Part shown: piece after piece, positions 7,678 through 30,521 of the stretch
Numbering within the stretch: position 1 is the stretch's first letter
How the letters are laid out: each line of letters starts with the position of its first letter
The notes under the pieces: model-generated
What the model was told of the DNA's origin: nothing
The model's database searches: none
Seen by the model: the letters and a program-made list of their open reading frames with translations, nothing else
NCBI GenBank assembly: GCA_944372565.1
Contig: CALVZR010000120.1
Location: 1 to 44,644, forward strand
Origin: an uncultured Clostridia bacterium
GTDB lineage: Bacteria; Bacillota; Clostridia; Christensenellales; Borkfalkiaceae
Length of the DNA: 44,644 nucleotides
Direction of reading: 5' to 3'
Translations under genes and position numbers: made by a program

Positions 7678-9012
7678 TTAGCCGCTCGTTTTGGGGATGG
7701 TTACGACGATAAATCCTTTATCCACGACAACAGAGCCGCCCGCCATCACTTCGCCCATGACCGTCAAAAGCCCTTCGGCGAATTTATACTCATCCGAAAC
7801 CATCACGCCGAAGTCTCCGAAGATCACTTCTTTGAAGTTAAACGGCGAACCGTAGATCATGGTCTGCACCGCAGCGGTCGTCTGCGCGGTGCCCTGATGC
7901 GCCGTAAGCGTGGGAACGAGACAGTAAGGCACGGCAAGCCCGCCGTCTTCGATGATACCGATATTCGGGTTGGTCGCGTTCGGCGTAATCTTATATACGG
8001 GCAGCTTGTTGTTCGTTCCGCGAACGTCGCCGAATGCGATCAGGTCCGCCTTGTTGAGATACAGCACGGCGTTTCCGTACACATTCGCGTCGCCGCCGTA
8101 AGACATCGCGATGAGCCGCAGCGTGCGCTCGTTGATCTGCCCGTTCGTGGCGTTGAGCAGGCCGTTTGCCGTGCTCGCTTCGAGCGTCTGATACATCGGA
8201 TTGGAAGAATCGTCCATGCCCGTCTTGATTTTCGTCACGATATCCTGCGCCAGCTTAACGCGGAGCGCGATCATCGCGGATTCCGTAACTTTTCCGAGGT
8301 AATTGAGCGGCGTAACCTTCTGCAACTCTCTCGAAACATAGCTCGTTACGGCAATGTTCTGCGGCGCGATCGTAACGGTGCCGAACGTGGGATCGGAAGC
8401 GGTCTGCGCCGTTCCTTCCGTCTTTGCGCTCGCAGTCGGAGACGCCTTCATAAACGATTCCTTATAGGAACCCGCGCCGCTCATATCGACGACCTGCACC
8501 TGATCGAAAATTGTGATGAGCTCGTTGAACGGATTCGTGATTCCCCCGACAAGCGTGGGCTTGGCGATGCCGGCGGTGGACGTCGTGATATTCCGTTTCC
8601 CGGAATTCGAAAGCCCGACGATCTCTTCCGCCGAAATTCTCAAATTCCTGCTCTTCTTGAACTCTTCCGCCCGTTTTTCAAACGCCTTGCGTATTTCCCT
8701 GTGCTCCATCGCGGAAAGGTCGTATCTGAGGATGTCCGTACTCCTCAGCTCTTTTTCTTCAAACATCTTTATCGTTTTTTCTCCTGAATTTTTATTTTCC
8801 GATTCGGAAATTTCCGAAAGCCTGTCCCGCAGCTCCGTTTTTGCCGCGAGTTCGCTGTCCAGTTTTTCTTTTTCTGCCCTGATTTCCGCAAACTCTTCCG
8901 CGGTAATTTGCGCACGGTGCTCTTCGAGCTTTTTGCGGAGTTCTTCCTTTTTTGCCTTGATCTGTTCGATTTTGAGGTTTACGTTCCTCAGCTGTTCGAT
9001 GACCTTTTCCAT
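7678..9012 (-). CDS. Major capsid protein, HK97 family, with N-terminal coiled-coil delta/scaffold domain
   Basis: 444 aa. The first ~110 aa are E/K-rich coiled coil. Follows the prohead protease; RBS GGGAGG. Confidence 0.9.
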   Translation of the reverse strand: MEKVIEQLRNVNLKIEQIKAKKEELRKKLEEHRAQITAEEFAEIRAEKEKLDSELAAKTELRDRLSEISESENKNSGEKTIKMFEEKELRSTDILRYDLSAMEHREIRKAFEKRAEEFKKSRNLRISAEEIVGLSNSGKRNITTSTAGIAKPTLVGGITNPFNELITIFDQVQVVDMSGAGSYKESFMKASPTASAKTEGTAQTASDPTFGTVTIAPQNIAVTSYVSRELQKVTPLNYLGKVTESAMIALRVKLAQDIVTKIKTGMDDSSNPMYQTLEASTANGLLNATNGQINERTLRLIAMSYGGDANVYGNAVLYLNKADLIAFGDVRGTNNKLPVYKITPNATNPNIGIIEDGGLAVPYCLVPTLTAHQGTAQTTAAVQTMIYGSPFNFKEVIFGDFGVMVSDEYKFAEGLLTVMGEVMAGGSVVVDKGFIVVTIPKTSG

Positions 9013-9016
9013 CTTC

Positions 9017-9601
9017 TTAAACCTCCCAATTCTGAATGGTCTTTTCGATTTCTTTTTTCAGATTTTGTTCCCGTTTTGCCCGCTCTTCCTCATTTTGACG
9101 GGCTGCCATTACGACCGTTTCCTTATATGCGGGGAACGGCGTAATCGTGATTTCGTGCAATGCGTTGAAATGCGTGATCGTCCGCGTAAGCGTTTCGGGA
9201 TTGACTATATCCGAAAACTCAAACCAAAAACTCATTCCGTCCACGATTTTCGCTTCGATAAGGTTGTACCAATCCCTCGCGTATTGCGTATTCGGCATTT
9301 CGCATTCCATAAACAGCCCCGTATCGTCTGTTTCCAAACGCATATTGATTCCGTTCTTGCCGAGCACGTTATCCGGATTATGCCCGACAAGCAGATATAC
9401 GTTATCCAAATCGACGCCGTCGAGAGCCGTCGGAAGAATCGTCTCCGTAATCTCGCCGTAAAACCAGTCATATACCTTTGTCGGCGTATTGAACAAAATC
9501 GGATAACCGCGGACGACCAGCTTTTTTCCGCTTCCGTCTTCGGCCCGCACTTCAGTTTCAAAATTTACGGATCTGAATTCATTTTTCCTGTTATTCTGCA
9601 T
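9017..9601 (-). CDS. Prohead serine protease (HK97 / S78-like)
   Basis: 194 aa between the portal and capsid genes. Has a VGHNPDNVLGK motif; RBS GGAAGGAGGAG. Confidence 0.85.
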   Translation of the reverse strand: MQNNRKNEFRSVNFETEVRAEDGSGKKLVVRGYPILFNTPTKVYDWFYGEITETILPTALDGVDLDNVYLLVGHNPDNVLGKNGINMRLETDDTGLFMECEMPNTQYARDWYNLIEAKIVDGMSFWFEFSDIVNPETLTRTITHFNALHEITITPFPAYKETVVMAARQNEEERAKREQNLKKEIEKTIQNWEV

Positions 9602-10865
9602 TTTCTCCTCCTTCCGACGCCGCGGAAGCGGGGGCTTTCGGTTCTGCCGCAGGTTCCGCCGCCTTCTTGACGCCGTTTTTTGCCAACTGGTATTCGTCGG
9701 CGCGCTCTATATTTACCGTATCCGCGGTGACACGGTACATCTGACCGTATCCGCCCGGAATCGGGGGAAGCCCGATGATTTCGCGCATCTCGTCCAAATT
9801 CATCACGCCCTGTCTCGCCGCCACACCGAACAGCGCCGTCTTTGCCGATAAGGTGCTGATGGAAAGGCTGAAAGTATCGAGTTCGAGACGGTTCCCGAAC
9901 TCCTGTTCCCTTTTTGTGAACAGCTTTGTCGTAAATTCCTGCTCCACTTGCCGCGCGATGGGTTCGATTTTGTTTTTGATAAACATTTCGTATTCGATTT
10001 CGCTCGCCTTGTTGTTGATGATCGAATCCGTTATGCCGAAATAGTTATACACGACGTTTATCGCAAACTGCATCAGTTCGCGGTTGACGTCGTTTTCCTG
10101 CCAGTTGATTGGCGTGATTTTCCATTGCGGGTCAAAGTAGGCGATTCCCTTTACGTTGTTATCGAAATTCGCCTTGACGTCATCCATCGTCCCTTTTTTG
10201 TCGCCCGGTTTCAGGTTTCCCTGATGCCCTGTATTTGCCTGCAAAATCGCGCGCGGCTTTTTGGGATCTGCCACGTTGATAGCCTGCGCCGCGAGCGCCT
10301 GGATCACCGTTTCGTATAAACCGAGATCGTTGCGAGGTCCGCCGCCCAGCGCCGAAAATCTGTTCAGATAAATCAGGCTGTCGAGGTTATACGTCTTTCC
10401 GAGCGACATAAATTCGACCGTCGCCGTATCGTCGTAAAGTTTGAAATCGAACTGGTCCTCCGGCAGCACGTAAAGCTGTTTCAGCTCTCCCGTCTTCCGC
10501 TCAAAAACGGGCTCGATAAAAACATTGTTGTACAGCATATACTGCGTGACGACGTTCACCCAGAACTGCGTGGCGTTTTGCAGGGGATTTGCCCGCATCG
10601 TCAAAACCCTTGACGAGTTGTTTTCGAAGTACGTTATATGCCCGTCTTTATCCTTCCGCTCGAAATACTTCGGGATGGTCGCAAAGATCTGCGCGAAGGC
10701 GTCGATCGCCGTGCGCACTTCCGGAATATTGTAAATATTGCTCGCATAGTTGTAAGCGAACCATCCGACGTTCCCGCCGTAATATTCGTAGATAATCGTC
10801 CGAAGATCTTTCGGCTCTTCGGATTTTTTGAACATTCTGGCTATAAAATTTCGGAACTTTCCCAT
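9591..10865 (-). CDS. Portal protein (HK97 family)
   Basis: 424 aa directly after the large terminase; RBS AGGAGAAAAG. Confidence 0.9.
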   Translation of the reverse strand: MGKFRNFIARMFKKSEEPKDLRTIIYEYYGGNVGWFAYNYASNIYNIPEVRTAIDAFAQIFATIPKYFERKDKDGHITYFENNSSRVLTMRANPLQNATQFWVNVVTQYMLYNNVFIEPVFERKTGELKQLYVLPEDQFDFKLYDDTATVEFMSLGKTYNLDSLIYLNRFSALGGGPRNDLGLYETVIQALAAQAINVADPKKPRAILQANTGHQGNLKPGDKKGTMDDVKANFDNNVKGIAYFDPQWKITPINWQENDVNRELMQFAINVVYNYFGITDSIINNKASEIEYEMFIKNKIEPIARQVEQEFTTKLFTKREQEFGNRLELDTFSLSISTLSAKTALFGVAARQGVMNLDEMREIIGLPPIPGGYGQMYRVTADTVNIERADEYQLAKNGVKKAAEPAAEPKAPASAASEGGENAE

Positions 10866-10873
10866 CTTTTCTC

Positions 10874-12640
10874 CTAAATGGCAAATAATTCGGGCAGCAT
10901 CGTTTTATATTCGTCCAGCTCTTTTGCCCGCTGATAACCTACGAACGCATTGAATATGCCGATCGCGCCGTCGATGTGCCCCGTGGATTTCGCCTTATGC
11001 GGGGCAAGATTGTTGTTCGCATCCTGTCTCACCTTCAGATTGTAAAAGCAATACGGCAGAAGTTTGTTGTTTTCGTCGTACTCGATCGCTTCCGCCTCGA
11101 AAAGACTCCTGATGATCTTGATCGGCTCCGAAAGCGTCCAGCCGCCCTGCGCGACCTCGGTTAAAATACCGTAGTCTCTTTCGATCGTCTTATCCTCTTT
11201 GCTGTACGTAATCTTTTCATGCGAAAAACCGTTTTCCTGCATATCCGTGAGCCACTCTTTCGAGAGCGCTCTGTCATAGCCGATTTTCAGGAAATTCACC
11301 TTGTATTCGTCGCGCAGCATCACGAACCAGCGCGTAACATACTCTTTCTGCACATAGGCGCCCGGAGTGATGATCACCAGCCTCGACGTCACGGTATTGT
11401 CCTCGTTCAGATGCTGCATCCGGGCATATTCCTGCTTGTCCCGTTCGCTGTTTCTCTCCAGTCTTCCCTCCGCGATGAAATAAGCCTGAATATAGATAAA
11501 TTTGCCCTTATCCGTTAAAATCTGCGCCGTCGCGTTGCAAAGGTCGGTCGTTTCCGCCAGATCCACGCCGCCCGTCGCGTATGTATCTACGATTTCTTCC
11601 GAAAAGATCTTGCGCATTCCGCGGCTGATCGCCGCCAGGTCGAAGAAATCTATCGCCGCGCCGATCTGGCGGTTCAGATGCTTTGCCAAAAAATTACTCA
11701 GCATAGCGGGCGATTTTTTCATACTTTCAAACTGCGATTTCAAAAACGCGAGCCGCGGCCGCCCGTCTTTCATCCCCGGATTCGCTTTTGGCCAACAAGT
11801 CGGATCGTTGTAATCGTCCTCTTCGTCGATGCCGAACATCAAGGCGAAAATGCGGTCGTCCCGCCCGAGTTTCTTTTTCCTTAAAAACTCCCTGTTCCTT
11901 TCAAAAATCCTTTCGTACAGGCTCGCGGGCGTCGTTCCCGCAGAAGAGATGACGATCATCATCGGCTGTTCGCGCGCGCCCATTCCCGTTTTTAATGCGT
12001 CGTACTGATTGAAATGGATGATTTCGTGCGCTTCGTTCACAACGGCTACGGACGGATTGTCGCCGTCCTTTCCCTTCGAGCGCCCGCTCAGATATTCTAT
12101 CCTGCCGTTATTGAACTTGCATCGGATGTATTTTTCCGTTTTTCTTTCGGAAAACATTTTGCTCAGCGGATATTGCCCCACCGCGGTTTTTATCAGGTCA
12201 TACGTTCTCTTTGACTGCTTTTCGTTTTCTGCGACGATCTGGCACCAGGGCCGCGCTTCCTTTTCCAGCCCGACGAACCAGCCTATCAACGTGACGATGA
12301 ACGTATCTTTCCCCCACTTTCTCGCCACAAAGAGATCGAGCTCGTTGAAATATCTGACATATTTCTTTTCCTGCTTGTCGTACAGCTTGATCCCCAAGAT
12401 ACAAGCGACGATATATTTCTGTTCCAGATCGAGCTCGATGGGCTTTCCCGCCCATTTCCCCTCCTGATGCCGAAACAGCCGCGCGAACTCCCGAAACGCG
12501 ACGGGATCGCTCTCTTTGTAGAAAACATTTTTCCGGGCAAGCAGTTCCTTGATCTGCCTGACGTTATCCTTCACGTCTTTGTTGTACTGAAACGGATGAT
12601 CTTCCACATATTTGAAAAAATCCGTGATCCATTTCAGCAT
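10874..12640 (-). CDS. terL: Terminase large subunit
   Basis: 588 aa between the small terminase and portal genes; RBS GGAGGAAC. Confidence 0.9.
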   Translation of the reverse strand: MLKWITDFFKYVEDHPFQYNKDVKDNVRQIKELLARKNVFYKESDPVAFREFARLFRHQEGKWAGKPIELDLEQKYIVACILGIKLYDKQEKKYVRYFNELDLFVARKWGKDTFIVTLIGWFVGLEKEARPWCQIVAENEKQSKRTYDLIKTAVGQYPLSKMFSERKTEKYIRCKFNNGRIEYLSGRSKGKDGDNPSVAVVNEAHEIIHFNQYDALKTGMGAREQPMMIVISSAGTTPASLYERIFERNREFLRKKKLGRDDRIFALMFGIDEEDDYNDPTCWPKANPGMKDGRPRLAFLKSQFESMKKSPAMLSNFLAKHLNRQIGAAIDFFDLAAISRGMRKIFSEEIVDTYATGGVDLAETTDLCNATAQILTDKGKFIYIQAYFIAEGRLERNSERDKQEYARMQHLNEDNTVTSRLVIITPGAYVQKEYVTRWFVMLRDEYKVNFLKIGYDRALSKEWLTDMQENGFSHEKITYSKEDKTIERDYGILTEVAQGGWTLSEPIKIIRSLFEAEAIEYDENNKLLPYCFYNLKVRQDANNNLAPHKAKSTGHIDGAIGIFNAFVGYQRAKELDEYKTMLPELFAI

Positions 12641-21399: not shown

Positions 21400-21600
21400 C
21401 TACAGAATATCCGATACAGTGCATTTCAATGCTTCTGCTAATTTGAGCAAAATATCTTTTCTTGGAAACCTATATCCGCTTTCATAAAAATAGATTGTCT
21501 GATTATCGACTCCGATAATTTTTGCAAGTTCGGTTTGCGTCATCCCTGCATTCATTCTTTTCGTCTTTAATTTGTTCATCGGCGAATATTTTTTAATCAT
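21400..21600 (-). CDS. Cro-like XRE-family helix-turn-helix regulator
   Basis: Helix-turn-helix MTQTELAKIIGVDNQTIYFYESG. The ATG at 21600 is preceded by GGAGGATGAA; the ORF-track start at 21612 lacks an RBS. First gene of the leftward early operon. Confidence 0.8.
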   Translation of the reverse strand: MIKKYSPMNKLKTKRMNAGMTQTELAKIIGVDNQTIYFYESGYRFPRKDILLKLAEALKCTVSDIL

Positions 21601-21612
21601 TTCATCCTCCAT

Positions 21613-21685
21613 TTTCTCACTATTTGTTAGTATTTTATAACACTATGTGAGTATTGTCAAGTATTTTATAACTATTTGTGAGAAA
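21613..21685. repeat. Operator-like repeats of the cro/cI switch
   Basis: The inverted pair TTTCTCAC (21613-21620) and GTGAGAAA (21678-21685) brackets two 22-nt direct repeats, GTATTTTATAAC..GTGAG, at 21630-21651 and 21661-21682. These are identical over the first 12 and last 5 nt. Confidence 0.6.
21632..21660 (-). promoter_or_regulatory. Candidate leftward early promoter (P_cro)
   Basis: On the minus strand: TTGACA (21660..21655), a 17-nt spacer, then TAAAAT (21637..21632). Overlaps the operator repeats. Confidence 0.55.
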
Positions 21686-21708
21686 TTTTTGTATTTTTCT
21701 TTTTCATC

Positions 21709-21737
21709 TTGTCAATAATCTAACAATATGTTATAAT
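21709..21737 (+). promoter_or_regulatory. Candidate rightward repressor promoter (P_cI)
   Basis: TTGTCA (21709-21714), a 17-nt spacer, then TATAAT (21732-21737). AAAGGAGAAAA RBS, then the ATG at 21760. Confidence 0.65.
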
Positions 21738-21759
21738 ATTAAAAAGGAGAAAATGAAAA

Positions 21760-22158
21760 ATGTCTCTCGGTAAAAGAATCAAAGAATTACGGAAAACCAA
21801 AAATTTAACTCAAATTGAATTTGCCAAACTCTTTCAAATTTCGAGCGGCACTATTGCCATGTGGGAAACCGATAAACGGCAGCCTGATTTTACTACATTG
21901 CAAAAACTTGCCGATTTTTTCGGCGTTTCTACCGATTATCTTCTCAGCAGAACGGAAAACGCACTTGACCGCCGCCCCGCTTCGGATATCGCGGAAAATT
22001 TTATAAAGGAGTTTGGGGAACTTTTTTCGGATGAAAATTTTCAAAAACTGGCAGGGATTTATAAAGTTATGAATGAGATTCAACGCCGCGAGATTTTATT
22101 ATATTTGATCGGCTACGCCCGCGGTGCGGGAATAGATACAAAAATCATCGGATATTAA
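21760..22158 (+). CDS. CI-like XRE-family repressor
   Basis: N-terminal helix-turn-helix LTQIEFAKLFQISSGTIAMWETDKRQP. Divergent from the cro-like gene across the operator region. Confidence 0.85.
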   Translation: MSLGKRIKELRKTKNLTQIEFAKLFQISSGTIAMWETDKRQPDFTTLQKLADFFGVSTDYLLSRTENALDRRPASDIAENFIKEFGELFSDENFQKLAGIYKVMNEIQRREILLYLIGYARGAGIDTKIIGY

Positions 22159-22174
22159 AAACGGGGGTGAAAAT

Positions 22175-23335
22175 ATGAAGTGGTTTCGTAATTTAGAGAA
22201 ATGGGAAAAAGTTGTTTTGATTTTTGCGGCATTAGTGTTGTGCGGTATTTTTTCGATTATTGAAATCATCTGGCTTTCGACCATTTTTCTTATTATTGCA
22301 GTTTTACTTATAGTTTTTACTATCCGCACAGAAAAACTTAAAAAGAATAAACACAATAACCCTGATTTTGATGAAGAACGCCCGCGGACGCAGCCCCTGA
22401 TCGTTCCTTATCAAGTAAAAACTTACGCATTGGATGAAATCGACGGAAACAACGGAAGGCGTTCGAGAAAGAACATTATCAGGCGTATGTATTGGAATGA
22501 CGGGGATTATGAAATACTTTACCCTCGCGTTATCACTTTAAGCGCCGAAAATAATAAATACGACGTTTTTGTAAACGGCGAAAAAATAGGCGCCATTCCC
22601 GAAAAATATACTTGGGAAGTAAGACTCATCTATAACAGGATCGTGAAAATCGATATGTATATAGAACACGAACGCGAACCGGGAAATACGCTTTACGAAC
22701 CGGTGATAACTCTACACTATTATACGGAAAACAGTTTAGCGGAAAATCCGAACTTCCTTTATAAAAACCAGGGAAAAAGACTTTCGACTTACTCTTCTCC
22801 CTGTTTTCTCGACGAATATATCGTGATCGATATAGAAACAACCGGGTTAAATCCTTTAACGGACGACATCCTCGAAATCGCCGCTTTACATATAAAAACC
22901 GGATCTGTGGCAGACAGTTTTTCCGAATTTGTTTATTCTGATAAAATAACCGAAAAATCGATGGAAATCAACCACATCACTCCAGCACGGGTGGCTAATG
23001 CCCGCAAATGTTCGGAAGTATTAAAAGATTTTACGAATTTTATTTCCGAGTTGCCGCTGATCGGTCATAATATTTGCTTTGACCTGAGTTTTATTCGCAC
23101 AAAGATTTCTATCGATAATTCTTTCGATGATACCTGTGCGCTAAGCAAAAGATATCTATGCGACGGTAAATACGGCATCATGCTTGAGAATTGCAAACTC
23201 CCTACAGTTTGCGCCGCATTAAACATTTCTTTCGTTCCGAATCATCGCGCTTTGGACGACTGCAAATGCACATTTGAGTGCTATGAAAAAATAAAAGGCA
23301 TTTTAAATCAGCCCGAAGAGGCTGTAAGCCTTTAA
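22175..23335 (+). CDS. Membrane-anchored protein with C-terminal DEDDh (DnaQ/epsilon-like) 3'-5' exonuclease domain
   Basis: Two N-terminal hydrophobic helices (aa ~13-50) flanked by K/R residues. Exo motifs: IVIDIETTG (D219, E221), GHNICFD (D303) and HRALDD (H357, D362). Starts 16 nt after the cI stop, with a GGGGGTGA RBS. Confidence 0.8.
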   Translation: MKWFRNLEKWEKVVLIFAALVLCGIFSIIEIIWLSTIFLIIAVLLIVFTIRTEKLKKNKHNNPDFDEERPRTQPLIVPYQVKTYALDEIDGNNGRRSRKNIIRRMYWNDGDYEILYPRVITLSAENNKYDVFVNGEKIGAIPEKYTWEVRLIYNRIVKIDMYIEHEREPGNTLYEPVITLHYYTENSLAENPNFLYKNQGKRLSTYSSPCFLDEYIVIDIETTGLNPLTDDILEIAALHIKTGSVADSFSEFVYSDKITEKSMEINHITPARVANARKCSEVLKDFTNFISELPLIGHNICFDLSFIRTKISIDNSFDDTCALSKRYLCDGKYGIMLENCKLPTVCAALNISFVPNHRALDDCKCTFECYEKIKGILNQPEEAVSL

Positions 23336-23354
23336 AAAAATGTCATAAACCTAT

Positions 23355-23382
23355 TTATCATCCTTCTTTTCCGCGATATAAT
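23355..23382 (+). promoter_or_regulatory. Possible integrase promoter
   Basis: TTATCA, a 16-nt spacer, then TATAAT upstream of the int RBS. The -35 element is weak. Confidence 0.3.
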
Positions 23383-23417
23383 GAAAGTCCACAACTTAAG
23401 GAGGAGGATGATGTACA

Positions 23418-24635
23418 ATGGACAAGTTTATTCAGGAATGCCTTTCTGTCCTTTCCGGCGCGGCCCGAAACATACAATCGGCAGTGATCGGATTATCCGG
23501 TTATTTTTCCGGTATGGACTATGCGGAAAAAGCGCGCGGCGAACCGCCGCCACGAATTTTAATCGAAAATAAAACAGAGCAAGTTTCGGAGTTTTTAGAA
23601 TTTACCGAAAAGGAGATTTTGAAAATGCCGAAAGAATTTAGAAAATTATTTAAAACAAAAGGAGGCGCTGCCCATATACGAAAAAAGAAAAACGGAGTTT
23701 ATGAGATCCGACGCATGATCGACGGCGTAAATTATTACGCCGCGTCAAAGAACCTTGCTTTGGCAAAGAAAAAATTTATCGACATACTGAATCAAATTCC
23801 TACTGCCGCCGCCGTTACAATACAGCGGCCGTCCGTAAAACTATTTAAGGATTGGATCGACGACTGGTTGGAAATCGTTAAAAAGCCCAAAATCAAAGAG
23901 GTTACTTTCCTTAATTATCGCAACTACATCGATAAGCATATTATCCCGAAATTCGGGGATGCAGACGTGAAAAGCGTGATGTCGATAGATATTCAGCAAT
24001 TTATCAATTCTTACGGAGAAAGCAGGACCGCACAACGCATTTATGAAGTAATGACCAGTTTTTATACATACGCCGAAAACGCGGGGATAATCGACCGTTC
24101 CCCCATGCGCGTCATCGGAAAGCCCCTGCATTATGTCGAGGAAAAAAAGCCCTTAACTTTGGCGGAAGAAAAAGCGTTTGTGGAAACGCTTTTTTCAAAT
24201 TCCAATCCGTATCGATATGTTTTCGTCGTCATGCTTTACGCGGGGTTACGCCGTTCCGAAGTGAAAACGAGCGTAATTGATGAAAATTGGATCACGGTAA
24301 AATGCGCAAAGCAGCGCCGAGGACAGCCGGTAAAGTTCCGCAAAATACCCGTTTCGCCTATGTTACGTAAATTTTTCCCGATCGGCACGTTTCCAAACGT
24401 AGGCGATGACGTCTTGACGCGCGTATTCAAAAAAATTTGCCCGAATCATAATCTGCACGAGCTGCGGCACACCTTCAACTCTCGGGCCAGAGAGTGCGGC
24501 GTTCCGAAAGAACTTGTTCAAAAATGGTGCGGGCACAAGCCACCGAGCCGGGATGTAAACGAATCCGTTTATATGCATTATTCAGATGAATATCAGTTAA
24601 GGGAAATAAAAAAAGTAGAATATACTTACGAATAG
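23418..24635 (+). CDS. int: Tyrosine recombinase / phage integrase
   Basis: Catalytic signature: AGLRRSE (Arg), HELRHTF (H-x-x-R) and a C-terminal VYMHY Tyr. GGAGGAGG lies before the ATG at 23418. An alternative start at 23625 (AAGGAGA RBS) would remove a 69-aa N-terminal extension. Confidence 0.9.
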   Translation: MDKFIQECLSVLSGAARNIQSAVIGLSGYFSGMDYAEKARGEPPPRILIENKTEQVSEFLEFTEKEILKMPKEFRKLFKTKGGAAHIRKKKNGVYEIRRMIDGVNYYAASKNLALAKKKFIDILNQIPTAAAVTIQRPSVKLFKDWIDDWLEIVKKPKIKEVTFLNYRNYIDKHIIPKFGDADVKSVMSIDIQQFINSYGESRTAQRIYEVMTSFYTYAENAGIIDRSPMRVIGKPLHYVEEKKPLTLAEEKAFVETLFSNSNPYRYVFVVMLYAGLRRSEVKTSVIDENWITVKCAKQRRGQPVKFRKIPVSPMLRKFFPIGTFPNVGDDVLTRVFKKICPNHNLHELRHTFNSRARECGVPKELVQKWCGHKPPSRDVNESVYMHYSDEYQLREIKKVEYTYE

Positions 24636-24741: not shown

Positions 24742-24817
<76 letters not shown>

Positions 24818-24822
24818 GCTAA

Positions 24823-24855
24823 AAAATTAACGCTTGACGCGCAAGCGTTAATTTT
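24823..24855 (-). terminator. Strong hairpin with T-run between the two tRNA-Ala genes
   Basis: Perfect 12-bp stem AATTAACGCTTG / CAAGCGTTAATT (extendable to 14 bp) with a 5-nt loop. On the minus strand it is followed by TTTTTAGC. Confidence 0.55.
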
Positions 24856-24860
24856 CAATT

Positions 24861-24936
24861 TGGTGGAGATAAGGGGATTCGAACCCCTGGCCTATGCGTT
24901 GCGAACGCATCGCTCTACCAACTGAGCCATATCCCC
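24861..24936 (-). tRNA. tRNA-Ala (anticodon CGC)
   Basis: 76 nt: GGGGATA-TG-GCTC..GAGC. Anticodon arm ATGCG-TTCGCAA-CGCAT, T-arm GGGG-TTCGAAT-CCCC, G3-U70 pair, encoded CCA. Confidence 0.93.
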
Positions 24937-24953
24937 GCCCCGTTAGCATTGTT

Positions 24954-24982
24954 ATTTTACTACGACTTAAAAAAATAGTCAA
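24954..24982 (-). promoter_or_regulatory. Promoter of the tRNA-Ala genes
   Basis: On the minus strand: TTGACT, a 17-nt spacer, then TAAAAT. The -10 hexamer ends 17 nt upstream of the tRNA-Ala(CGC) 5' end. Confidence 0.65.
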
Positions 24983-25011
24983 CCGTTTTGCGAAAAAAAC
25001 AGTAAAATTGT

Positions 25012-25040
25012 TTGACAAATTTTTTGGAAAAGTGCATAAT
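25012..25040 (+). promoter_or_regulatory. Promoter of tRNA-Val
   Basis: TTGACA, a 17-nt spacer, then CATAAT, 11 nt upstream of the tRNA 5' end. Confidence 0.7.
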
Positions 25041-25051
25041 AGATACTGCGC

Positions 25052-25128
25052 GGAGGCATAGCTCAGTCGGTTAGAGCGCCTGCTTCACATGCAGGAGGTC
25101 GTAGGTTCGAGTCCTACTGTCTCTACCA
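25052..25128 (+). tRNA. tRNA-Val (anticodon CAC)
   Basis: 77 nt: GGAGGCA-TA-GCTC-AGTCGGTTA-GAGC. Anticodon arm CCTGC-TTCACAT-GCAGG, T-arm GTAGG-TTCGAGT-CCTAC, encoded CCA. The acceptor stem has two G-U pairs. Confidence 0.85.
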
Positions 25129-25133
25129 AACCC

Positions 25134-25161
25134 GTGCCTGCCCTGTGCAGGCACTTTTTTT
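25134..25161 (+). terminator. Rho-independent terminator after tRNA-Val
   Basis: GTGCCTGC-CCTGT-GCAGGCAC followed by TTTTTTT. Confidence 0.85.
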
Positions 25162-25195
25162 ATGCGCGGCGAACGCCGCAAAAAGGAGAGATCCG

Positions 25196-25834
25196 ATGGA
25201 CTGCGTTATCTTCGATTTCGACGGCACGATCGCAAACACCGTTCCCCTGTGCGTGGAGGCGCTCCGCCGCGCCGTGCAGAACCTGACGGGAATAAAACCG
25301 ACGGCGGAAAAAATCGAAAGCACGTTCGGCCCTTCGGAAGAAGGCACGCTCGCCGCGTTCGCGCCCGGCCGCGCAGACGAGGGAATGCAAATCTATCTCG
25401 GCATTTACAGGGAACTGCACCCCGTCCTCTGCCCCGCCCCCTTCGGCGGGCTGGAACAGGTGTTTTCCGTCCTGCGCGAAAAGGGAGTGAAAACCGCCCT
25501 CGTTACGGGAAAGAGCGCCCCCTCGCTCGCCATCGACCTCGAACTCTTCGGTATGCGGGATTTGTTCTGCCATATCGAAACGGGCAACCCCGCCCGCGCG
25601 GATAAACCCGTTTGCATCGCCCGCACGCTTTCGCGCCTGGGCGTTCTCCCCCAAAACGCCCTGTATGTCGGCGACACCGTGAGCGACATTTTTTCCGCAA
25701 GGGAATCGGGGATGCGGATCGCGTCCGCCGCCTGGGCGCCCACCGCAAACGCCGAAGAACTCGCGCGGCACCGCCCCGATCATCTCTTTTCCTCGGTCGG
25801 CGCGTTCGCCGTATGGCTGAAACAGACGATTTAA
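25196..25834 (+). CDS. HAD-superfamily hydrolase (phosphoglycolate-phosphatase-like)
   Basis: ORF trimmed to the ATG at 25196, preceded by AAAGGAGAG. Motif I is FDFDGT; a GDTVSD motif lies near the C-terminus. Confidence 0.85.
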   Translation: MDCVIFDFDGTIANTVPLCVEALRRAVQNLTGIKPTAEKIESTFGPSEEGTLAAFAPGRADEGMQIYLGIYRELHPVLCPAPFGGLEQVFSVLREKGVKTALVTGKSAPSLAIDLELFGMRDLFCHIETGNPARADKPVCIARTLSRLGVLPQNALYVGDTVSDIFSARESGMRIASAAWAPTANAEELARHRPDHLFSSVGAFAVWLKQTI

Positions 25835-25842
25835 AACGCTCC

Positions 25843-25880
25843 GCCCCGCCCGTCTTCTGACGGGCGGGGCGTTTTTCTTT
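25843..25880 (+). terminator. Rho-independent terminator between convergent genes
   Basis: GCCCCGCCCGTC-TTCT-GACGGGCGGGGC followed by GTTTTTCTTTT on the plus strand. There is no T-run on the minus strand. Confidence 0.8.
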
Positions 25881-25887
25881 TGCCGGT

Positions 25888-26598
25888 TCAGCGGGGCTTA
25901 TCCGCCACGAAGATCGCCGTGCTGCCGTTTTCGTAAACGGTTTCCGCGCGGAACCCCGCGGCGGAAAGCAGCCCGATCTGCCGCGCCTTCGTGAGCGGGA
26001 TGTCGATATGCAGATACCCTTCCCGCACGTTTTTGCGGCGTTCGTAATCCTTGCGGCAGAGCTCTTCCTCCTCTTCGCAGCAGGCGACGTAATCGCATTC
26101 CACATACCGCCCTCCCTTTTTCAGGGCACGGAAGATCTTTCGGTAAAGTTCCCCTTTCTTTTCGCCGGGGAAGTGGTGCAGCGTTTCAAAGGAAAGCGCG
26201 GCGTCGAACGCCTCTTCCCCGAAGGGGACGGCAAAATAGTCGCCGCAGACGAGTTCGGGCGAATACGCGGCGTATTTTTTTCTCAGCTCGGAAAGCATTT
26301 CGGCGGAGAGGTCTATCCCCTTCACGCGCACGGCGGGAAAGCGGGCGTAAACCGAGCCGAGTTCCAGCCCCGTGCCGCAGCCGATATCGAGCAAAGACGC
26401 CGTTTCCCGCCCCAGATAATCGGCGATGTGCGCATATTCTTCCGCCCATCTGCCGAGATGCACGTTCTCATAAATCCCCAGCCGCTTTGCGAAAAAGGCG
26501 GACATCTCCTCCGCAGGGTCCGCCTGCGCGCGGCTTTCGGCAAGGGCGCTTAAATAGCGCTCTCTTTCCTCTTTTGTAAAAGGTTTGCTCTTCAACAT
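25888..26598 (-). CDS. Class I SAM-dependent methyltransferase
   Basis: Motif I LLDIGCGTGLEL; RBS AAGGGGAAAA. Confidence 0.85.
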   Translation of the reverse strand: MLKSKPFTKEERERYLSALAESRAQADPAEEMSAFFAKRLGIYENVHLGRWAEEYAHIADYLGRETASLLDIGCGTGLELGSVYARFPAVRVKGIDLSAEMLSELRKKYAAYSPELVCGDYFAVPFGEEAFDAALSFETLHHFPGEKKGELYRKIFRALKKGGRYVECDYVACCEEEEELCRKDYERRKNVREGYLHIDIPLTKARQIGLLSAAGFRAETVYENGSTAIFVADKPR

Positions 26599-26663
26599 CC
26601 CGTTTTCCCCTTTGCCCGTTCCGAAACGCGTCGCAACCGCGTTTGCGCATATTTTTTCCTCTT

Positions 26664-26696
26664 TGCAAAAGCGCGGAACTTTTTTTCGTTCCGCGC
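26664..26696 (-). terminator. Rho-independent terminator ending the glycoside hydrolase operon
   Basis: The minus strand reads GCGCGGAAC-GAAAAAAA-GTTCCGCGC followed by TTTTG, directly after the GH29 stop. Confidence 0.7.
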
Positions 26697-26701
26697 CGCA
26701 A

Positions 26702-27682
26702 TTATTTCAGTTTTTTCAGAATATCCGTCGCCGCGGCGGGGAACCTGCCGAGCGCGTCCGGCCCCACGTTGAGCAGATAGTTGATGCCGCGCGAATTGAG
26801 GTGTTCTTTGATGCGCTTCACCTCCTCCGCGCTCTTCCAGTTCTGATCGTACGATTTATATCCCCAGGTATCGTTCAGGGTGGCGGGCGTTTCAAACAGC
26901 CCTTCTTTCATATACTCTTCGGGAATCTCGTTATCGCCCCAGCTGCGGTAATCGAATTTGTATTTATCCGTGCCGTCCTCGATGTTCCCGAGGCGGGAAT
27001 TGATGAGGCAGTCCGGCTGATATTTCTTTACCAGATCGTAGAGCGCAACGGACTGCGCCTTGGAGATGCTCATAGGCGTATCGAACCAGATGAGGGCGAG
27101 ATCGCCGTAATTTTTCACGAGTTCTTCCACCTGCGGATACATCTTGCGCTCAAAACATTCGGTGTAGTTTTTCTCCGCCGCGTTCGGGAAATCCCAGTCG
27201 TTGCACCAGGGCAGGCCGAGATTGTCGCCGCAGTCCGCCTCGTAGCCGCCGCCGTTTTTCTCGTGCCAGTCGAGCGCCTGGGAATAGTAAAGCCCGAGTT
27301 TGAAATTCTTCCGCGCGCAGGCGTTCGCCAGTTCCTCGATGAGATCCCTTTTGAAAGGCGAAGCCTTCACGGACGTGAAATCGTCCGCCCTGGAATCGAA
27401 GAGGGCGAATCCCTCGTGATGCTTGGAGGTAACCACGAGATATTTCGCCCCGCAGTCCTCCGCAACGGAAACCCATTCGTCCGCATCGAAGTACAGCGGA
27501 TCGAACGCGCCCGCCAGTTTTTCGTATTCGGCGTTCGGAATCCTGAAATAGGGCTGAATCCATTCTCCGATGAAGCTGCCCATCCTCTTGCCGCGGTATT
27601 CGCCGCCGAGCAGGGAGTACAGGCCGAAATGCACCATCAGCCCGAATTTCGCCTCTTTGAACCATTTCTGATTTTCACGCAT
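26702..27682 (-). CDS. Alpha-L-fucosidase (GH29), catalytic domain only
   Basis: FGLMVHFGLYS and SKHHEGFALFDS motifs. At 326 aa it is shorter than the usual GH29 with a C-terminal beta-sandwich. No signal peptide. Confidence 0.8.
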   Translation of the reverse strand: MRENQKWFKEAKFGLMVHFGLYSLLGGEYRGKRMGSFIGEWIQPYFRIPNAEYEKLAGAFDPLYFDADEWVSVAEDCGAKYLVVTSKHHEGFALFDSRADDFTSVKASPFKRDLIEELANACARKNFKLGLYYSQALDWHEKNGGGYEADCGDNLGLPWCNDWDFPNAAEKNYTECFERKMYPQVEELVKNYGDLALIWFDTPMSISKAQSVALYDLVKKYQPDCLINSRLGNIEDGTDKYKFDYRSWGDNEIPEEYMKEGLFETPATLNDTWGYKSYDQNWKSAEEVKRIKEHLNSRGINYLLNVGPDALGRFPAAATDILKKLK

Positions 27683-27693
27683 TGCATTTTACC

Positions 27694-29205
27694 TCACTTG
27701 AACCTGAAATTTTTCACGCGCGAAATTTCGAGTTCCATCTCCTCCGCGCTCTTTGCCCGCACCCCGTTGAACGAGATGTTTTCGAACGAAATATCTTTGA
27801 ATGCAAACCCTTCGTAAAACGAAACGATACGGCTCGCGGGGAAACAAGCCCCCTCTTCGACGTATGCGCGGATATTTTCAAAACGGACGTTTTCCACCGT
27901 GCCCCGCCGCGGATCGGCGAGCTGTTCTTCGGTGAACAGATACCGGTACATTTCCATATCCGTCATCGCGTAGTTGCCCACGGCGATGAGCGCGGGGCGC
28001 ATCTGAGCGCCTTCCGCGTCGTACTCCGCGGGGGAAGTCTGCATTTTTTCGGGCAGCGCGCCCGCCTCGAATTCGGCGGAAACGTCCTTGAAAAGCACAT
28101 CACGGATACGGGCGTAATTGCCCGCCTGCACGTCGAGCGCGGCGGCGGAATTGTGCACGAGGAAACAGTTTTCAAAAAAAATGCGCTCGTACGTTTCGCA
28201 CGCCGTTTCCAGCCCGATTTCCAGCGTTCTGCCCCAGTCGCACCACAGCGTGCAGTTCTTTACCGAAATATCCGTTACGTTGCCTTCAAACTGTTCCACG
28301 GCTTTGAGGCAGACGGAGTCGTCGAAACTGCGCACGAAAGAGTTTTCGATCTTCACGCGGCGGCTGTTCATAATGTCGATGCCGTCCGTGTTGTACCGCC
28401 ACTGCCCTACGATCTTCACGTTGTCCACAAAAATATCTTCGCATTCGTACATGGAAAAACACCAGTTTGCCGAATCGCGCAGAACGATGCCCTCCACCGA
28501 AACGTCTTTGCAGTTGTAAAGGCGGATATTGCCCTTCGTATAATCCTCGTAGCAGTGCGGGGCGATGCGCACCTCGTAGCTGCCGTCCAGCACGCCGCCG
28601 CCGTAAATTTTCACGTCCTTCGCGCCGTGCGCCAGGAGCGAACCGTACACGACGGCGCCGTTTTCGAGATACACGCGGTCTCCGTCTTTGAGACGGATGA
28701 CCCCGGGGAAATGGATGCCCGCGCCGAAGAAGTACGTCGCGCCCTCTTTTTCATATGCGCGGGGCGCGTCCACGAAGACGTGCAGCGCCGCGTGCCGCCC
28801 GTACGGTTCAAAGACATAAGCGCCGCTTTGCTCTATCGTGAAAACGGCGGCGTTGCCGTCTTCCGCCACGGAAATATTTTTCTCCAGCGGACGGACGAGC
28901 GCGGGCGCGCGGAAGGTCTTTTTCGCCCCCGTCAGAACGGACGCGGGGCAATCGGACGGCGCGGGCGCGAATTTCACCTCGAAGCGCAGCGGCTCGTCCG
29001 CCGTAACGCGCACGAACGCCGCCGTTTCCGACTGATTGCGCGGGCGGGCGAACGCCACGCCCGTATCGTTATACCCGTTGTAGGGCACGGCCGAACAGCG
29101 CGCGTTATATACGGGGCATTCCTTTCCGTTCACGAACACCCGATAATCCTTGTTGAGCGGTTCCGCGAAATCCTTGATTGCGGGAACGCTGAAAAATTCC
29201 CTCAT
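27694..29205 (-). CDS. Right-handed beta-helix glycoside hydrolase, clan GH-N (GH28/GH49-like)
   Basis: RYNTDGIDI ... SFDDSVCLKA signature. The N-terminal beta-sandwich-like region begins YRVFVNG. No signal peptide. Confidence 0.7.
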   Translation of the reverse strand: MREFFSVPAIKDFAEPLNKDYRVFVNGKECPVYNARCSAVPYNGYNDTGVAFARPRNQSETAAFVRVTADEPLRFEVKFAPAPSDCPASVLTGAKKTFRAPALVRPLEKNISVAEDGNAAVFTIEQSGAYVFEPYGRHAALHVFVDAPRAYEKEGATYFFGAGIHFPGVIRLKDGDRVYLENGAVVYGSLLAHGAKDVKIYGGGVLDGSYEVRIAPHCYEDYTKGNIRLYNCKDVSVEGIVLRDSANWCFSMYECEDIFVDNVKIVGQWRYNTDGIDIMNSRRVKIENSFVRSFDDSVCLKAVEQFEGNVTDISVKNCTLWCDWGRTLEIGLETACETYERIFFENCFLVHNSAAALDVQAGNYARIRDVLFKDVSAEFEAGALPEKMQTSPAEYDAEGAQMRPALIAVGNYAMTDMEMYRYLFTEEQLADPRRGTVENVRFENIRAYVEEGACFPASRIVSFYEGFAFKDISFENISFNGVRAKSAEEMELEISRVKNFRFK

Positions 29206-29222
29206 GGTTTTTTCTCCGTTTT

Positions 29223-30521
29223 TTAAAGGACCTCGATCCCGGCGAATTCGTTTTTCAATACGATCGCGCTCCCCGCCTCGACCTTTTTCCCCGCCACGAT
29301 CATATTTTCGAGCGTTACGCGCGAAACGCGGCGGGTTTCGTCCTGCCCCAGCACCACGCCGCAGCCGTGCACGGGCGTGCGGCAGACGATGTTTTTCATC
29401 CCGATGTTTTCAATCGATTTTCCCACCGTGCTCGCATACGCCTCGGTAAAGCGGAAACTGAACGGGCGGCCGTATTCGATGCGGTCAATCTCGATGTCTT
29501 TCCAAAAAATGTTCCGTATAACGGCGTTATCCGCGGCGAAGATCGCCATCACGCCCTGATACAGTTCGTGGTATTCTTTATGTTCGAGCACGCGTATGTT
29601 TTCAAATACGATGTTTTCGTATATGTTTTCCGCCGCGGGGTCGGATTCCGGGCCGATGAGCATACTGTGGGCGCAGTCCCCCCAGAGGATGCAGTTTTTC
29701 ATAGAAATGTCGCGGCAGTCCCCCGCGATCTCCCCCGCTTTCGCCTTTACGGAAATATTGTCGTCGTAATTGCGCAAAAAGCAGTTTTCTATGCGCACGT
29801 GCGAGGACGCGCAGATGTCCAGCCCGTCGCTGTTCCTGGCATAGCAGATCTGCTTTACGTTTTCGATCTTCACGTTTTCGCAGCCGATGCAGCAAAGCGT
29901 CCAGGAAGGGGAATCGAGCATAAACACGTCCTCGATCACGAGGTCTTTGCAATGTTTCGCGCAGAAGAGCATTTCGCGCGGCTTGGTATCGTCGTGCTCA
30001 AAATCCGAACCGCACAGCACGCCGTAGCCGCACACGCGGATGCCGTTTCCCTGCGCCTTCACCACGCCGCGCACATACGCGCCCTCTTCGAGATAGAGCG
30101 TTTGCCCTTCTTTTAATTCAATCACGCCCGCGTCGTGTTCGCCCTCGGGAAAGGCGATCACGTCCCCGCGCGGGGAATATTCCTTCTTCTGCTCCGCAAA
30201 CACGTGCAGGTTGCCGAAAAGATCGCCGTCGAACTCCACGGAAAATTTCGCGGGCGCGGCGAGCGTGAGGCGCACTTCCCCGTTTTTGAAAACGAAATCC
30301 GTTTCGGGGCGCACGCGCGCGCTCTTTGCGGGAAAGTTCGGGCGCACGGTGATTTCGGCGGGCGCGGCGAAGTCGTGCGAAAAGAGGCACGCCCCCGCGT
30401 CCACGATGTCGAAATAGCGCTCTCCCCCGAAAAAATAAGCGTTTTTCACGGGGGCGCGCAGCACTTTCTTCTCTTCTCCGTTCACAAAAACGGAGTAGCG
30501 TTTCGTATAGATCTCTTTCAT
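29223..30521 (-). CDS. Right-handed beta-helix glycoside hydrolase, clan GH-N (GH28/GH49-like), paralogue of 27694..29205
   Basis: RNSDGLDIC ... NYDDNISVKA signature. The N-terminal YSVFVNG region parallels the neighbouring gene. ATGA overlap with the GH38 stop. No signal peptide. Confidence 0.7.
   Translation of the reverse strand: MKEIYTKRYSVFVNGEEKKVLRAPVKNAYFFGGERYFDIVDAGACLFSHDFAAPAEITVRPNFPAKSARVRPETDFVFKNGEVRLTLAAPAKFSVEFDGDLFGNLHVFAEQKKEYSPRGDVIAFPEGEHDAGVIELKEGQTLYLEEGAYVRGVVKAQGNGIRVCGYGVLCGSDFEHDDTKPREMLFCAKHCKDLVIEDVFMLDSPSWTLCCIGCENVKIENVKQICYARNSDGLDICASSHVRIENCFLRNYDDNISVKAKAGEIAGDCRDISMKNCILWGDCAHSMLIGPESDPAAENIYENIVFENIRVLEHKEYHELYQGVMAIFAADNAVIRNIFWKDIEIDRIEYGRPFSFRFTEAYASTVGKSIENIGMKNIVCRTPVHGCGVVLGQDETRRVSRVTLENMIVAGKKVEAGSAIVLKNEFAGIEVL

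Follow-up and report, generated by a model that had tools for sequence, protein, structure and literature searches.

A predicted membrane-anchored DEDDh exonuclease encoded between the repressor and integrase genes of a Clostridia prophage

We analysed a 44,644-nucleotide stretch of DNA (the window; contig CALVZR010000120.1, positions 1 to 44,644) from an uncultured Clostridia bacterium of the Borkfalkiaceae. The window holds the right-hand part of a siphovirus-like prophage whose structural genes lie on the minus strand. Our subject is an open reading frame (ORF) of 386 amino acids (aa) that follows the cI-like repressor gene of this prophage and is predicted to encode a membrane-anchored DEDDh exonuclease. 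The product may act on DNA that enters the lysogenic cell. The features of the gene and of the region around it are listed below (HTH, helix-turn-helix; pLDDT, predicted local distance difference test).

21400-21612, minus strand: cro-like gene with an HTH, 70 aa, oriented away from the repressor operon (Pfam HTH_3, E = 2.5e-15)
21610-21759: switch region holding operator-like repeats and a divergent pair of promoter-like sites
21660-21632, minus strand: promoter-like site, TTGACA-17-TAAAAT, 11/12 positions, a consensus match only
21709-21737, plus strand: promoter-like site, TTGTCA-17-TATAAT with upstream TG, 11/12 positions, a consensus match only
21760-22158, plus strand: cI-like repressor, 132 aa, first gene of the operon (Pfam HTH_3, residues 7-61, E = 1.7e-17)
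22175-23335, plus strand: exonuclease ORF, 386 aa, ATG start
22199-22354, plus strand: predicted two-helix transmembrane hairpin, residues 9-60, minimal loop near E30 (hydropathy and AlphaFold2)
22355-22408, plus strand: polar, poorly conserved linker, residues 61-78 (pLDDT <50, alignment)
22409-22810, plus strand: middle alpha/beta domain, HIRAN-like, residues 79-212, with basic helix NGRRSRKNIIRRMYW and motif VNGEKIGAIPEKY
22811-23335, plus strand: DEDDh (DnaQ/PolC-type) 3'-5' exonuclease domain, residues 213-386 plus stop codon
23355-23382, plus strand: promoter-like site ahead of int, TTATCA-16-TATAAT, 10/12 positions, a consensus match only
23418-24635, plus strand: tyrosine integrase (int), final gene of the prophage on the side of the host flank (Pfam Phage_int_SAM_3, E = 1.5e-13, and Phage_integrase)

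The exonuclease ATG lies behind a 16-nucleotide spacer (22159-22174) that follows the cI stop codon (TAA, 22156-22158) on the same strand. The sequence GGGGGTG at 22163-22169, ending 5 nucleotides ahead of the ATG, reads as a ribosome-binding site. These coordinates agree with a first-pass annotation, which had placed the ORF 16 nucleotides past cI, with its own ribosome-binding site, and between cI and int. That annotation had also described the junction as free of hairpins and promoters. A terminator scan of the cI-exonuclease unit supported the first part, since no terminator-like hairpin was found on the plus strand from 21760 to 23335. The second part needs correction, because a consensus scan returned a weak promoter-like match (9/12 positions) inside the 3' end of cI, at 22073-22102. 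As the second cistron of the repressor operon, the exonuclease would be expected to be produced in lysogens. Three imperfect 31-nucleotide direct repeats (21610-21692) and several inverted repeats, all of them probably operators, lie between the divergent cro/cI promoter-like sites. If the promoter-like site at 23355-23382 is real, int could be independent of read-through from the repressor operon. A Pfam scan of the repressor gave HTH_3 alone, with no S24 peptidase or self-cleavage domain.

DEDDh domains are 3'-5' exonucleases, and the C-terminal domain is an unambiguous member of this superfamily. Pfam RNase_T (PF00929) matched residues 216-368 with 84 bits against a cut-off of 24 (E = 2e-23), and the exonuclease domain covers residues 214-377 in the AlphaFold2 model. 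We observed that D219, E221, D303, H357 and D362 are invariant in 14/14 clusters of the protein family and align with the motifs of 2p1j; this invariance confirms the three Exo motifs (DxE, D and Hx4D) first read from the translation. The same structure, the PolC-type exonuclease domain of T. maritima, was the sequence match in the PDB (E = 1.2e-20), and the Cas-associated DEDDh model of PADLOC matched at E = 6.7e-34. Foldseek returned 8h2f and 8h18, which are S. thermophilus DnaQ-domain structures (8h2f: E = 1.6e-12, TM-score 0.82 over the target), with Cas2-DEDDh (8fy9), DinG and epsilon as further nearest structures. All of the nearest solved structures act on DNA 3' ends, and we infer that the substrate is DNA.

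An ordinary proofreading subunit (epsilon/PolC-like) or a phage replication exonuclease would be another reading of this domain. It agrees with the match to PHROG 192, 'DNA polymerase exonuclease subunit' (E = 3e-41), and with the labels of related GenBank phage genes, which are annotated 'DNA polymerase' or 'DNA polymerase III epsilon'. Every NCBIfam equivalog score, however, fell far under its cut-off (best, NF005289, 116 against 335 bits; polC, 97 against 873; dnaQ_proteo, 44.6 against 222.7), so the exonuclease is not orthologous to the proofreading subunit. The gene belongs to the repressor operon, the early and replication genes are on the other strand, and a hairpin and an extra domain come ahead of the exonuclease. 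A scan of the ten larger prophage ORFs gave no polymerase domain. Its NCBIfam scores, its position and its architecture led us to dismiss both a housekeeping epsilon and a replication exonuclease, and we regard such a function as extremely improbable.

The N-terminal part of the protein points to a membrane-held enzyme. Kyte-Doolittle hydropathy showed one hydrophobic block, ~40 aa long and interrupted at the polar E30 (residues 9-56, maximum 2.89), and such a block was found in all full-length homologues. Basic segments flank it, with 4 K/R in residues 1-12 and 5 K/R plus a His in residues 51-60 (RTEKLKKNKH). AlphaFold2, run on the 14-sequence family alignment (mean pLDDT 79, predicted TM-score 0.69), placed helices at residues 9-28 and 32-60 with pLDDT ~90. 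Hydropathy and model together bear out the two back-to-back hydrophobic helices with K/R-rich flanks that had been proposed at about residues 13-50. Both termini are predicted to be cytoplasmic, on the positive-inside rule only, and the hairpin is predicted to fix the product in the cytoplasmic membrane with the nuclease inside the cell. Residues 57-76 are disordered in the model (pLDDT <50), and the linker is the most variable segment of the family alignment (ratio of nonsynonymous to synonymous divergence, dN/dS, 0.67).

Between linker and exonuclease, the AlphaFold2 model shows an alpha/beta fold over roughly residues 79-190. We observed that HIRAN structures of HLTF (with 4s0n, 6kcs and 4xzg at the top, E = 0.035-0.1) made up 6/8 of the top PDB fold matches of this domain, all of them weak (E = 0.035-0.15, probability 0.47-0.84, TM-score 0.31-0.39; model mean pLDDT 73). 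A viral fold search (BFVD) gave small uncharacterised phage proteins as the best matches (E = 1.6e-4, TM-score 0.58), and lower in the list stood a protein annotated 'HIRAN domain' (probability 0.97, TM-score 0.42) and several helicases. HIRAN was also the sole recurring Pfam family in a nuclease-free sister family (4/17 members, best E = 4.5e-4, taken as under the Pfam threshold). Profile searches of PDB sequences with the middle-domain and sister-domain alignments returned nothing relevant. HIRAN domains, as known from HLTF, bind free DNA 3' ends, which would suit fusion to a 3'-5' exonuclease. By analogy, the middle domain probably binds DNA 3' ends. A tentative HIRAN assignment had been made in the first-pass annotation; with the HLTF fold matches and the sister-family members it survives as the best available lead for the fold, a weak one, and the low TM-scores and the missing Pfam match keep it from being proven.

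The sister family emerged from an exhaustive middle-domain profile search, in which ~30 weak matches were short proteins sharing VAGVTFKNGRKSRQTILR...EYEG.PA..V..NGEQIG..PKE. hhalign aligned the middle domain with the domain of these proteins over 105 columns (probability 99.3%, E = 2e-20), so the two domains are homologous. A sister-domain profile search extended the family to at least 455 clusters at E <1e-5 (median length 185 aa), mostly from gut-associated metagenomes; the family has no PADLOC match and no Pfam model of its own. A hairpin of about two transmembrane helices, a low-complexity linker and the domain, with no nuclease, make up 94 of the 124 sister sequences examined. Because this hairpin-plus-domain unit is shared, the window protein is best described as the unit joined to a DEDDh exonuclease. 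The five sister-family contexts looked up are all prophage accessory slots: three lie directly upstream of an integrase and two adjoin the endolysin block at the other prophage end. At L185, in a REP_ORF2-G2P prophage, the order is cI, Peptidase_M78, sister protein, integrase, which is the slot of the exonuclease. The sister proteins are thus placed as candidate exclusion proteins in their own right. Their genes lie at the following positions:

L176-L178, 5001-5567
L179, 5001-5561
L180, 2219-2821
L185, 5001-5573
L186, 5001-5573

Reverse-transcriptase (RVT_1) genes stand by tail-fibre-like genes (BppU_N, DUF6273) in some of these prophages (L176-L178, 8158-9225; L180, 7570-7821), and these loci look like diversity-generating retroelements.

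A hairpin that recurs apart from the nuclease could also belong to an abortive-infection protein. Here the HIRAN-like and exonuclease part would sense free DNA ends arising from an infecting or replicating phage, and the hairpin would oligomerise, damage the membrane and kill or arrest the cell. Short modules of two transmembrane helices are membrane-disrupting effectors in several defence systems, and the PADLOC library includes '2TM effector' models. The hairpin and linker are kept as a unit with the HIRAN-like domain in the nuclease-free clusters (at least 455), so the nuclease is dispensable for the role of that unit. The PADLOC 2TM effector match to the window protein was, however, insignificant and lay outside the hairpin (E = 0.038, residues 243-267). 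Moreover, none of the five catalytic residues varies, and constraint is strongest on the exonuclease (dN/dS 0.07), which argues that catalysis is the output and not merely part of sensing. We consider abortive infection quite unlikely.

A search of 5.8 billion proteins found the full architecture in 14 clusters only (39-91% identity), known from metagenomes only and from gut-associated samples. Hairpin, middle domain and exonuclease are all kept down to 38-47% identity. The homologues also share the MKWF start and a tight or overlapping spacing, and some members are extended at the C-terminus, for example by the TPR-like extension of P0093. Nine full-length homologues (38-91% identity) were traced to contigs. 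In 9/9 the order was cro on the minus strand, then cI on the plus strand, in some loci an ImmA-like gene, the exonuclease, the integrase and host genes. None of the nine (0/9) lay in a replication module. Recurrence in prophage int-cI slots had been expected from the window alone and was confirmed; the opposite outcome, homologues mainly in replication modules or resembling epsilon, was not seen. Compared with an 84%-identical homologue, dN/dS was 0.20 overall, 0.31 in the hairpin, 0.28 in the middle domain and 0.07 in the DEDDh domain. The gene is real, every domain is under purifying selection, and the conserved architecture exceeds chance.

The closest relative (L093) differs unevenly from the window. 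Identity was 99% for int, 98% for the ParB-like protein, 93% for PcfJ and 94% for the DEDDh domain, and it was 78% for the middle domain, 73% for the hairpin, 72% for cI and 35% for cro. Synonymous divergence (dS) was 0.10 for int, 0.40 for the exonuclease gene and 0.85 for cI. This drop towards int marks a recombination joint between exonuclease and int (23336-23417 in the window): the exonuclease moves together with the immunity module, and int goes with the remainder of the phage. Between distant members, integrases are ~23% identical and exonucleases 38-47%.

An extra gene of 136 aa lies between cI and the exonuclease in 4/9 of the homologous loci. Its product is ImmA/IrrE-like (Peptidase_M78, E = 4e-5 to 2e-4 in two members and 0.025 in a third, about the gathering score), with EELGH replacing HExxH, and its stop codon overlaps the exonuclease start (ATGA). 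The window phage has no such gene, and its cI, at 132 aa, exceeds the 110-115 aa of the related prophages. The four genes are as follows:

L001, 7594-8004: ImmA/IrrE-like gene
L003, 7591-8004: ImmA/IrrE-like gene
L087, 5594-6004: ImmA/IrrE-like gene
L088, 5594-6004: ImmA/IrrE-like gene

Relatives of the exonuclease domain occupy similar positions in other temperate phages. The 80 closest relatives in IMG/VR (loci L007-L086) formed 45 clusters at 70% identity. An HTH repressor-like gene lay on the same strand within 800 base pairs upstream in 22/45 clusters, compared to 6.7% of 580 control ORFs from the same loci; an integrase followed downstream in 17/45, and both genes were present in 15. The non-transmembrane examples scanned were DEDDh-BRCT proteins in 5/5 cases, mostly of 300-350 aa. 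Separate fusions of transmembrane segments to DEDDh domains, with no HIRAN-like domain, occur at L047, L051 and L058 (two-helix hairpins) and at L077. In C. tetani phage phiCT9441A, gene 78 (L175, 3776-4918) encodes a 380-aa DEDDh protein annotated 'DNA polymerase'. This gene is the last before attR, after the holin and endolysin genes; it is in a moron position and not a replication position, and its annotation is probably misleading. DEDDh exonucleases joined to varied DNA-binding or localising modules are thus carried again and again by temperate Bacillota phages in their lysogeny and accessory regions. We found no paper on DEDDh-BRCT genes in the repressor-integrase interval, and the role of these genes in lysogens appears undescribed. 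A viral protein of 839 aa at L018 (7362-9881), encoded downstream of a cI-like gene, combines an N-terminal transmembrane segment, a DNA-binding FtsK-gamma domain, two DEDDh domains and BRCT.

Such positions could mean that the gene serves the life cycle of its own prophage. The exonuclease might process DNA ends when lysogeny is established or during integration or excision, or might pass a DNA-damage signal into an ImmR/ImmA-type switch. Throughout the lineage the gene is in synteny with the repressor and has been kept with it by vertical descent, and the repressor has no self-cleavage domain. In relatives, the ImmA/IrrE-like protease gene sits immediately upstream and overlaps the exonuclease start, and many unrelated temperate phages have DEDDh-BRCT genes in this cI-int position. 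Both BRCT and HIRAN are classic modules of the DNA-damage response and of repair. A membrane anchor is, however, hard to square with work on the chromosome or an integrated prophage, and the 3' single-stranded tails on which RecA is loaded are not products of a 3'-5' exonuclease. The nuclease-free sister proteins also occur beside lysis genes at the other prophage end, a typical moron slot, and the related phiCT9441A exonuclease lies between endolysin and attR, away from the switch. We judge a role in the prophage's own cycle to be unlikely, though a serious competitor of the preferred reading; if true, it would reveal a new component of ImmR/ImmA-type switches.

The preferred reading, an exonuclease held at the membrane against entering DNA, has a close counterpart in SNIPE. 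SNIPE, a nuclease bound to the membrane, cleaves phage DNA during injection, as shown with lambda (Saxton et al., bioRxiv 10.1101/2025.11.03.685801). It consists of a transmembrane anchor, a DNA-binding DUF4041 domain and a GIY-YIG nuclease, and is toxic without the transmembrane segment (bioRxiv 10.1101/2025.11.03.685801). Like SNIPE, the window protein is a single protein that joins an N-terminal anchor to a middle domain, which binds DNA in SNIPE and probably does here, and to a cytoplasmic nuclease at the C-terminus; the hairpin, basic flanks and AlphaFold2 helices predict that the nuclease of the window protein is anchored and faces the cytoplasm. Both show the same conservation gradient, from nuclease to middle domain to N-terminus, and 7% of SNIPE homologues have two transmembrane segments. 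No part is homologous, however. Pfam scans of the window protein gave neither DUF4041 nor GIY-YIG, and a HIRAN-like and a DEDDh domain stand in their place, so the likeness is convergence at most. E. coli SNIPE has one transmembrane segment with its N-terminus outside, whereas the window protein has a hairpin with both ends predicted inside. Activity has been demonstrated for SNIPE, whereas the window protein is known from sequence only. With SNIPE described in 2025, a membrane-held nuclease against entering DNA is no longer a new idea. The first-pass annotation holds for the anatomy of the protein and for its recurrence between int and cI, with HIRAN as its best lead, and its interpretation as a whole is partly supported.

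Position also recalls the superinfection-exclusion proteins Sie2009 (Lactococcus phage Tuc2009) and Ltp (S. thermophilus phage TP-J34), small membrane-associated proteins encoded in the int-repressor interval. These are expressed in lysogens, block DNA entry of other phages and are not known to have an enzymatic domain. The window gene likewise encodes a predicted membrane protein between repressor and integrase, on the repressor's strand and in a conserved position. It differs in carrying an enzymatic domain, and no similarity to these proteins was detected (PHROGs gave exonuclease families only). In concept, Sie2009 and Ltp stand nearer to the nuclease-free sister family than to the window protein.

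The closest sequences and structures, Cas2-DEDDh/Cas2-DnaQ and PolC-type domains (8fy9, 8h18, 2p1j), share the exonuclease fold and active site. The window protein differs from them in having no Cas2 or polymerase fusion and no adjoining cas genes, and in its added hairpin and middle domain. PADLOC was also searched for a named defence family. Matches covered the exonuclease domain only: PDC-S48, an uncharacterised candidate, matched over positions 5-161 of a 411-position model, and a second model matched over positions 20-116 of 512. The protein matches no named defence family, and none had been recognised in this architecture in the first-pass annotation. PDC-S48 and TONDO resemble the window protein as single-gene DEDDh proteins with an auxiliary domain, linked to defence islands or prophages. 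TONDO proteins are ISG20-like prophage exonucleases active against RNA phages (PMC13344964). They are relatives of the RNA exonuclease ISG20, whereas the window domain is closest to DNA exonucleases; they show the antiviral capacity of prophage DEDDh exonucleases. Among viral proteins, the domain has its nearest relatives in the DEDDh-BRCT (PRK06195-like) proteins of temperate phages of Clostridia and Bacillota. These are often in the same cI-int position, and differ in being soluble and in carrying a C-terminal BRCT instead of the N-terminal hairpin and HIRAN-like domain. The family member P0095 links the two architectures. A loose parallel is offered by the DEDDy dinucleases that mobile elements encode beside HTH or HIRAN genes. 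The window protein is not a proofreading subunit, SNIPE, PDC-S48 or Cas2-DEDDh, as it lacks a defining feature of each. The concept is known; the parts and the protein family are undescribed.

Position, anchor and domain content suggest a role in defence or exclusion. We tentatively favour, at somewhat less than an even chance, a DNA exonuclease that is made in lysogens, sits at the membrane, acts against the ends of DNA coming into the cell and is analogous, not homologous, to SNIPE. The gene would be transcribed together with the repressor in lysogens. Its product would sit in the cytoplasmic membrane, with linker, HIRAN-like domain and exonuclease facing the cytoplasm. During the passage of linear foreign DNA through the membrane, the anchored enzyme would capture a free 3' end and resect it. 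The target would be the genome of a superinfecting phage and possibly transforming DNA. Resection would block cos-end annealing and circularisation and leave the DNA exposed to host nucleases. The chromosome would be spared, as the enzyme would act at the membrane only and would require a free end.

Several observations weigh against an exonuclease directed at entering phage DNA. A 3'-5' exonuclease alone is a weak weapon on double-stranded DNA. The middle domain had no Pfam match in the nine family sequences scanned, and HIRAN (PF08797) was absent even at E ≤10. Support from fold matches to HIRAN is weak (Foldseek TM-score 0.36-0.39), and hhalign of the sister-family alignment against one HLTF HIRAN sequence, an approximate query, gave 3.6% probability over 20 columns, although these columns fall in the expected 'NG..G' strand. 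No PADLOC model matches the protein over its full length. The family is rare, with ~10 clusters at the 50% level in an exhaustive middle-domain profile search of 1.84 billion representatives. We found no full-length member among GenBank phages (0/79 matching records cover 80% of the query), among the best 80 IMG/VR loci or among the best 80 GTDB species-genome loci listed. All nine prophages with a traced homologue belong to one lineage, marked by PcfJ, REP_ORF2-G2P and ParB-like genes, and their contexts are therefore not independent. The gene behaves as one stably inherited in the repressor operon and core-like in this lineage, not as a swappable moron with presence/absence variation, nine loci being the whole basis for this distinction; IMG/VR scans for slot variability with integrase and ParB-like queries and with a PcfJ alignment gave no usable relatives. 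P0095 has the middle and exonuclease domains, with a weak BRCT match and no hairpin, and many of the related exonucleases in this cI-int slot are DEDDh-BRCT proteins, which are soluble. The data thus do not require the protein to act where DNA enters, and membrane location may be one option among several and not the essence of the function.

The polarity of the enzyme bears on what kind of DNA would be attacked. Natural transformation imports single-stranded DNA 3' end first, and the polarity together with the putative 3'-end binder suits such ends better than duplex phage ends. The protein could therefore be a barrier to natural transformation and not to phages, and would guard the prophage against replacement by recombination with empty-site DNA. 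The predicted membrane anchor and the likely expression in lysogens would serve this role as they would serve defence against phages. No competence genes were seen in the window, where no search aimed at them was made, and a transformation barrier leans on the same inferences as an attack on phage genomes. We regard it as improbable.

The sister family would allow the attack on entering DNA to be set in a wider frame, which we consider possible though rather doubtful. The window protein would be the armed member of a large undescribed class of prophage exclusion proteins. In this class, the hairpin-linker-HIRAN-like unit would catch an entering DNA end at the inner face of the membrane and distinguish self from non-self through location and through whether a DNA end is present. 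Fusion to DEDDh would turn a cap into a shredder, and the soluble DEDDh-BRCT proteins of the cI-int slot would solve the same task in a third way.

If the preferred reading of a membrane-held exonuclease is true, the gene would be a second, evolutionarily independent case of the SNIPE principle, in which a nuclease is stationed on a path that invading DNA alone takes. Its components, an exonuclease and an end-binding domain, would differ from those of SNIPE, and its carriers would be prophages of uncultured bacteria from gut-associated samples. It would also hint at what HIRAN-like domains may do in bacteria. The nuclease-free clusters with hairpin and HIRAN-like domain are a testable lead, as are the DEDDh-BRCT genes that are routinely mis-annotated 'DNA polymerase III' in genomes of temperate phages.

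The remaining features of the prophage and its border are as follows:

7678-9012, minus strand: capsid
9591-10865, minus strand: portal
10874-12640, minus strand: terminase large subunit
14-18 kb: early genes REP_ORF2-G2P, PcfJ and DUF3102/ParB-like protein
24742-24817, minus strand: tRNA-Ala(ggc), 106 nucleotides beyond the int stop codon

tRNA-Ala(cgc) and tRNA-Val(cac) follow tRNA-Ala(ggc), and the tRNA block spans 24742-25128. GC content is 0.38-0.40 over 21-24 kb, the most AT-rich part of the window, compared to 0.44-0.56 in the structural genes, which bears out the earlier remark that the exonuclease gene and its neighbours are more AT-rich than the late operon. Past the tRNA genes it climbs from ~0.40-0.45 to 0.55-0.63 in the host flank, with a rise to 0.60 from ~25 kb. 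The tRNA block and the GC jump likely mark the attachment site and prophage border; the opposite prophage end falls outside the contig. In the high-GC host flank (25100-29300), long ORFs overlap on both strands, for example 27682-29226 (plus) with 27694-29205 (minus) and 25145-25834 (plus) with 25160-25783 (minus). The antisense ORFs of this segment are most likely composition artefacts.

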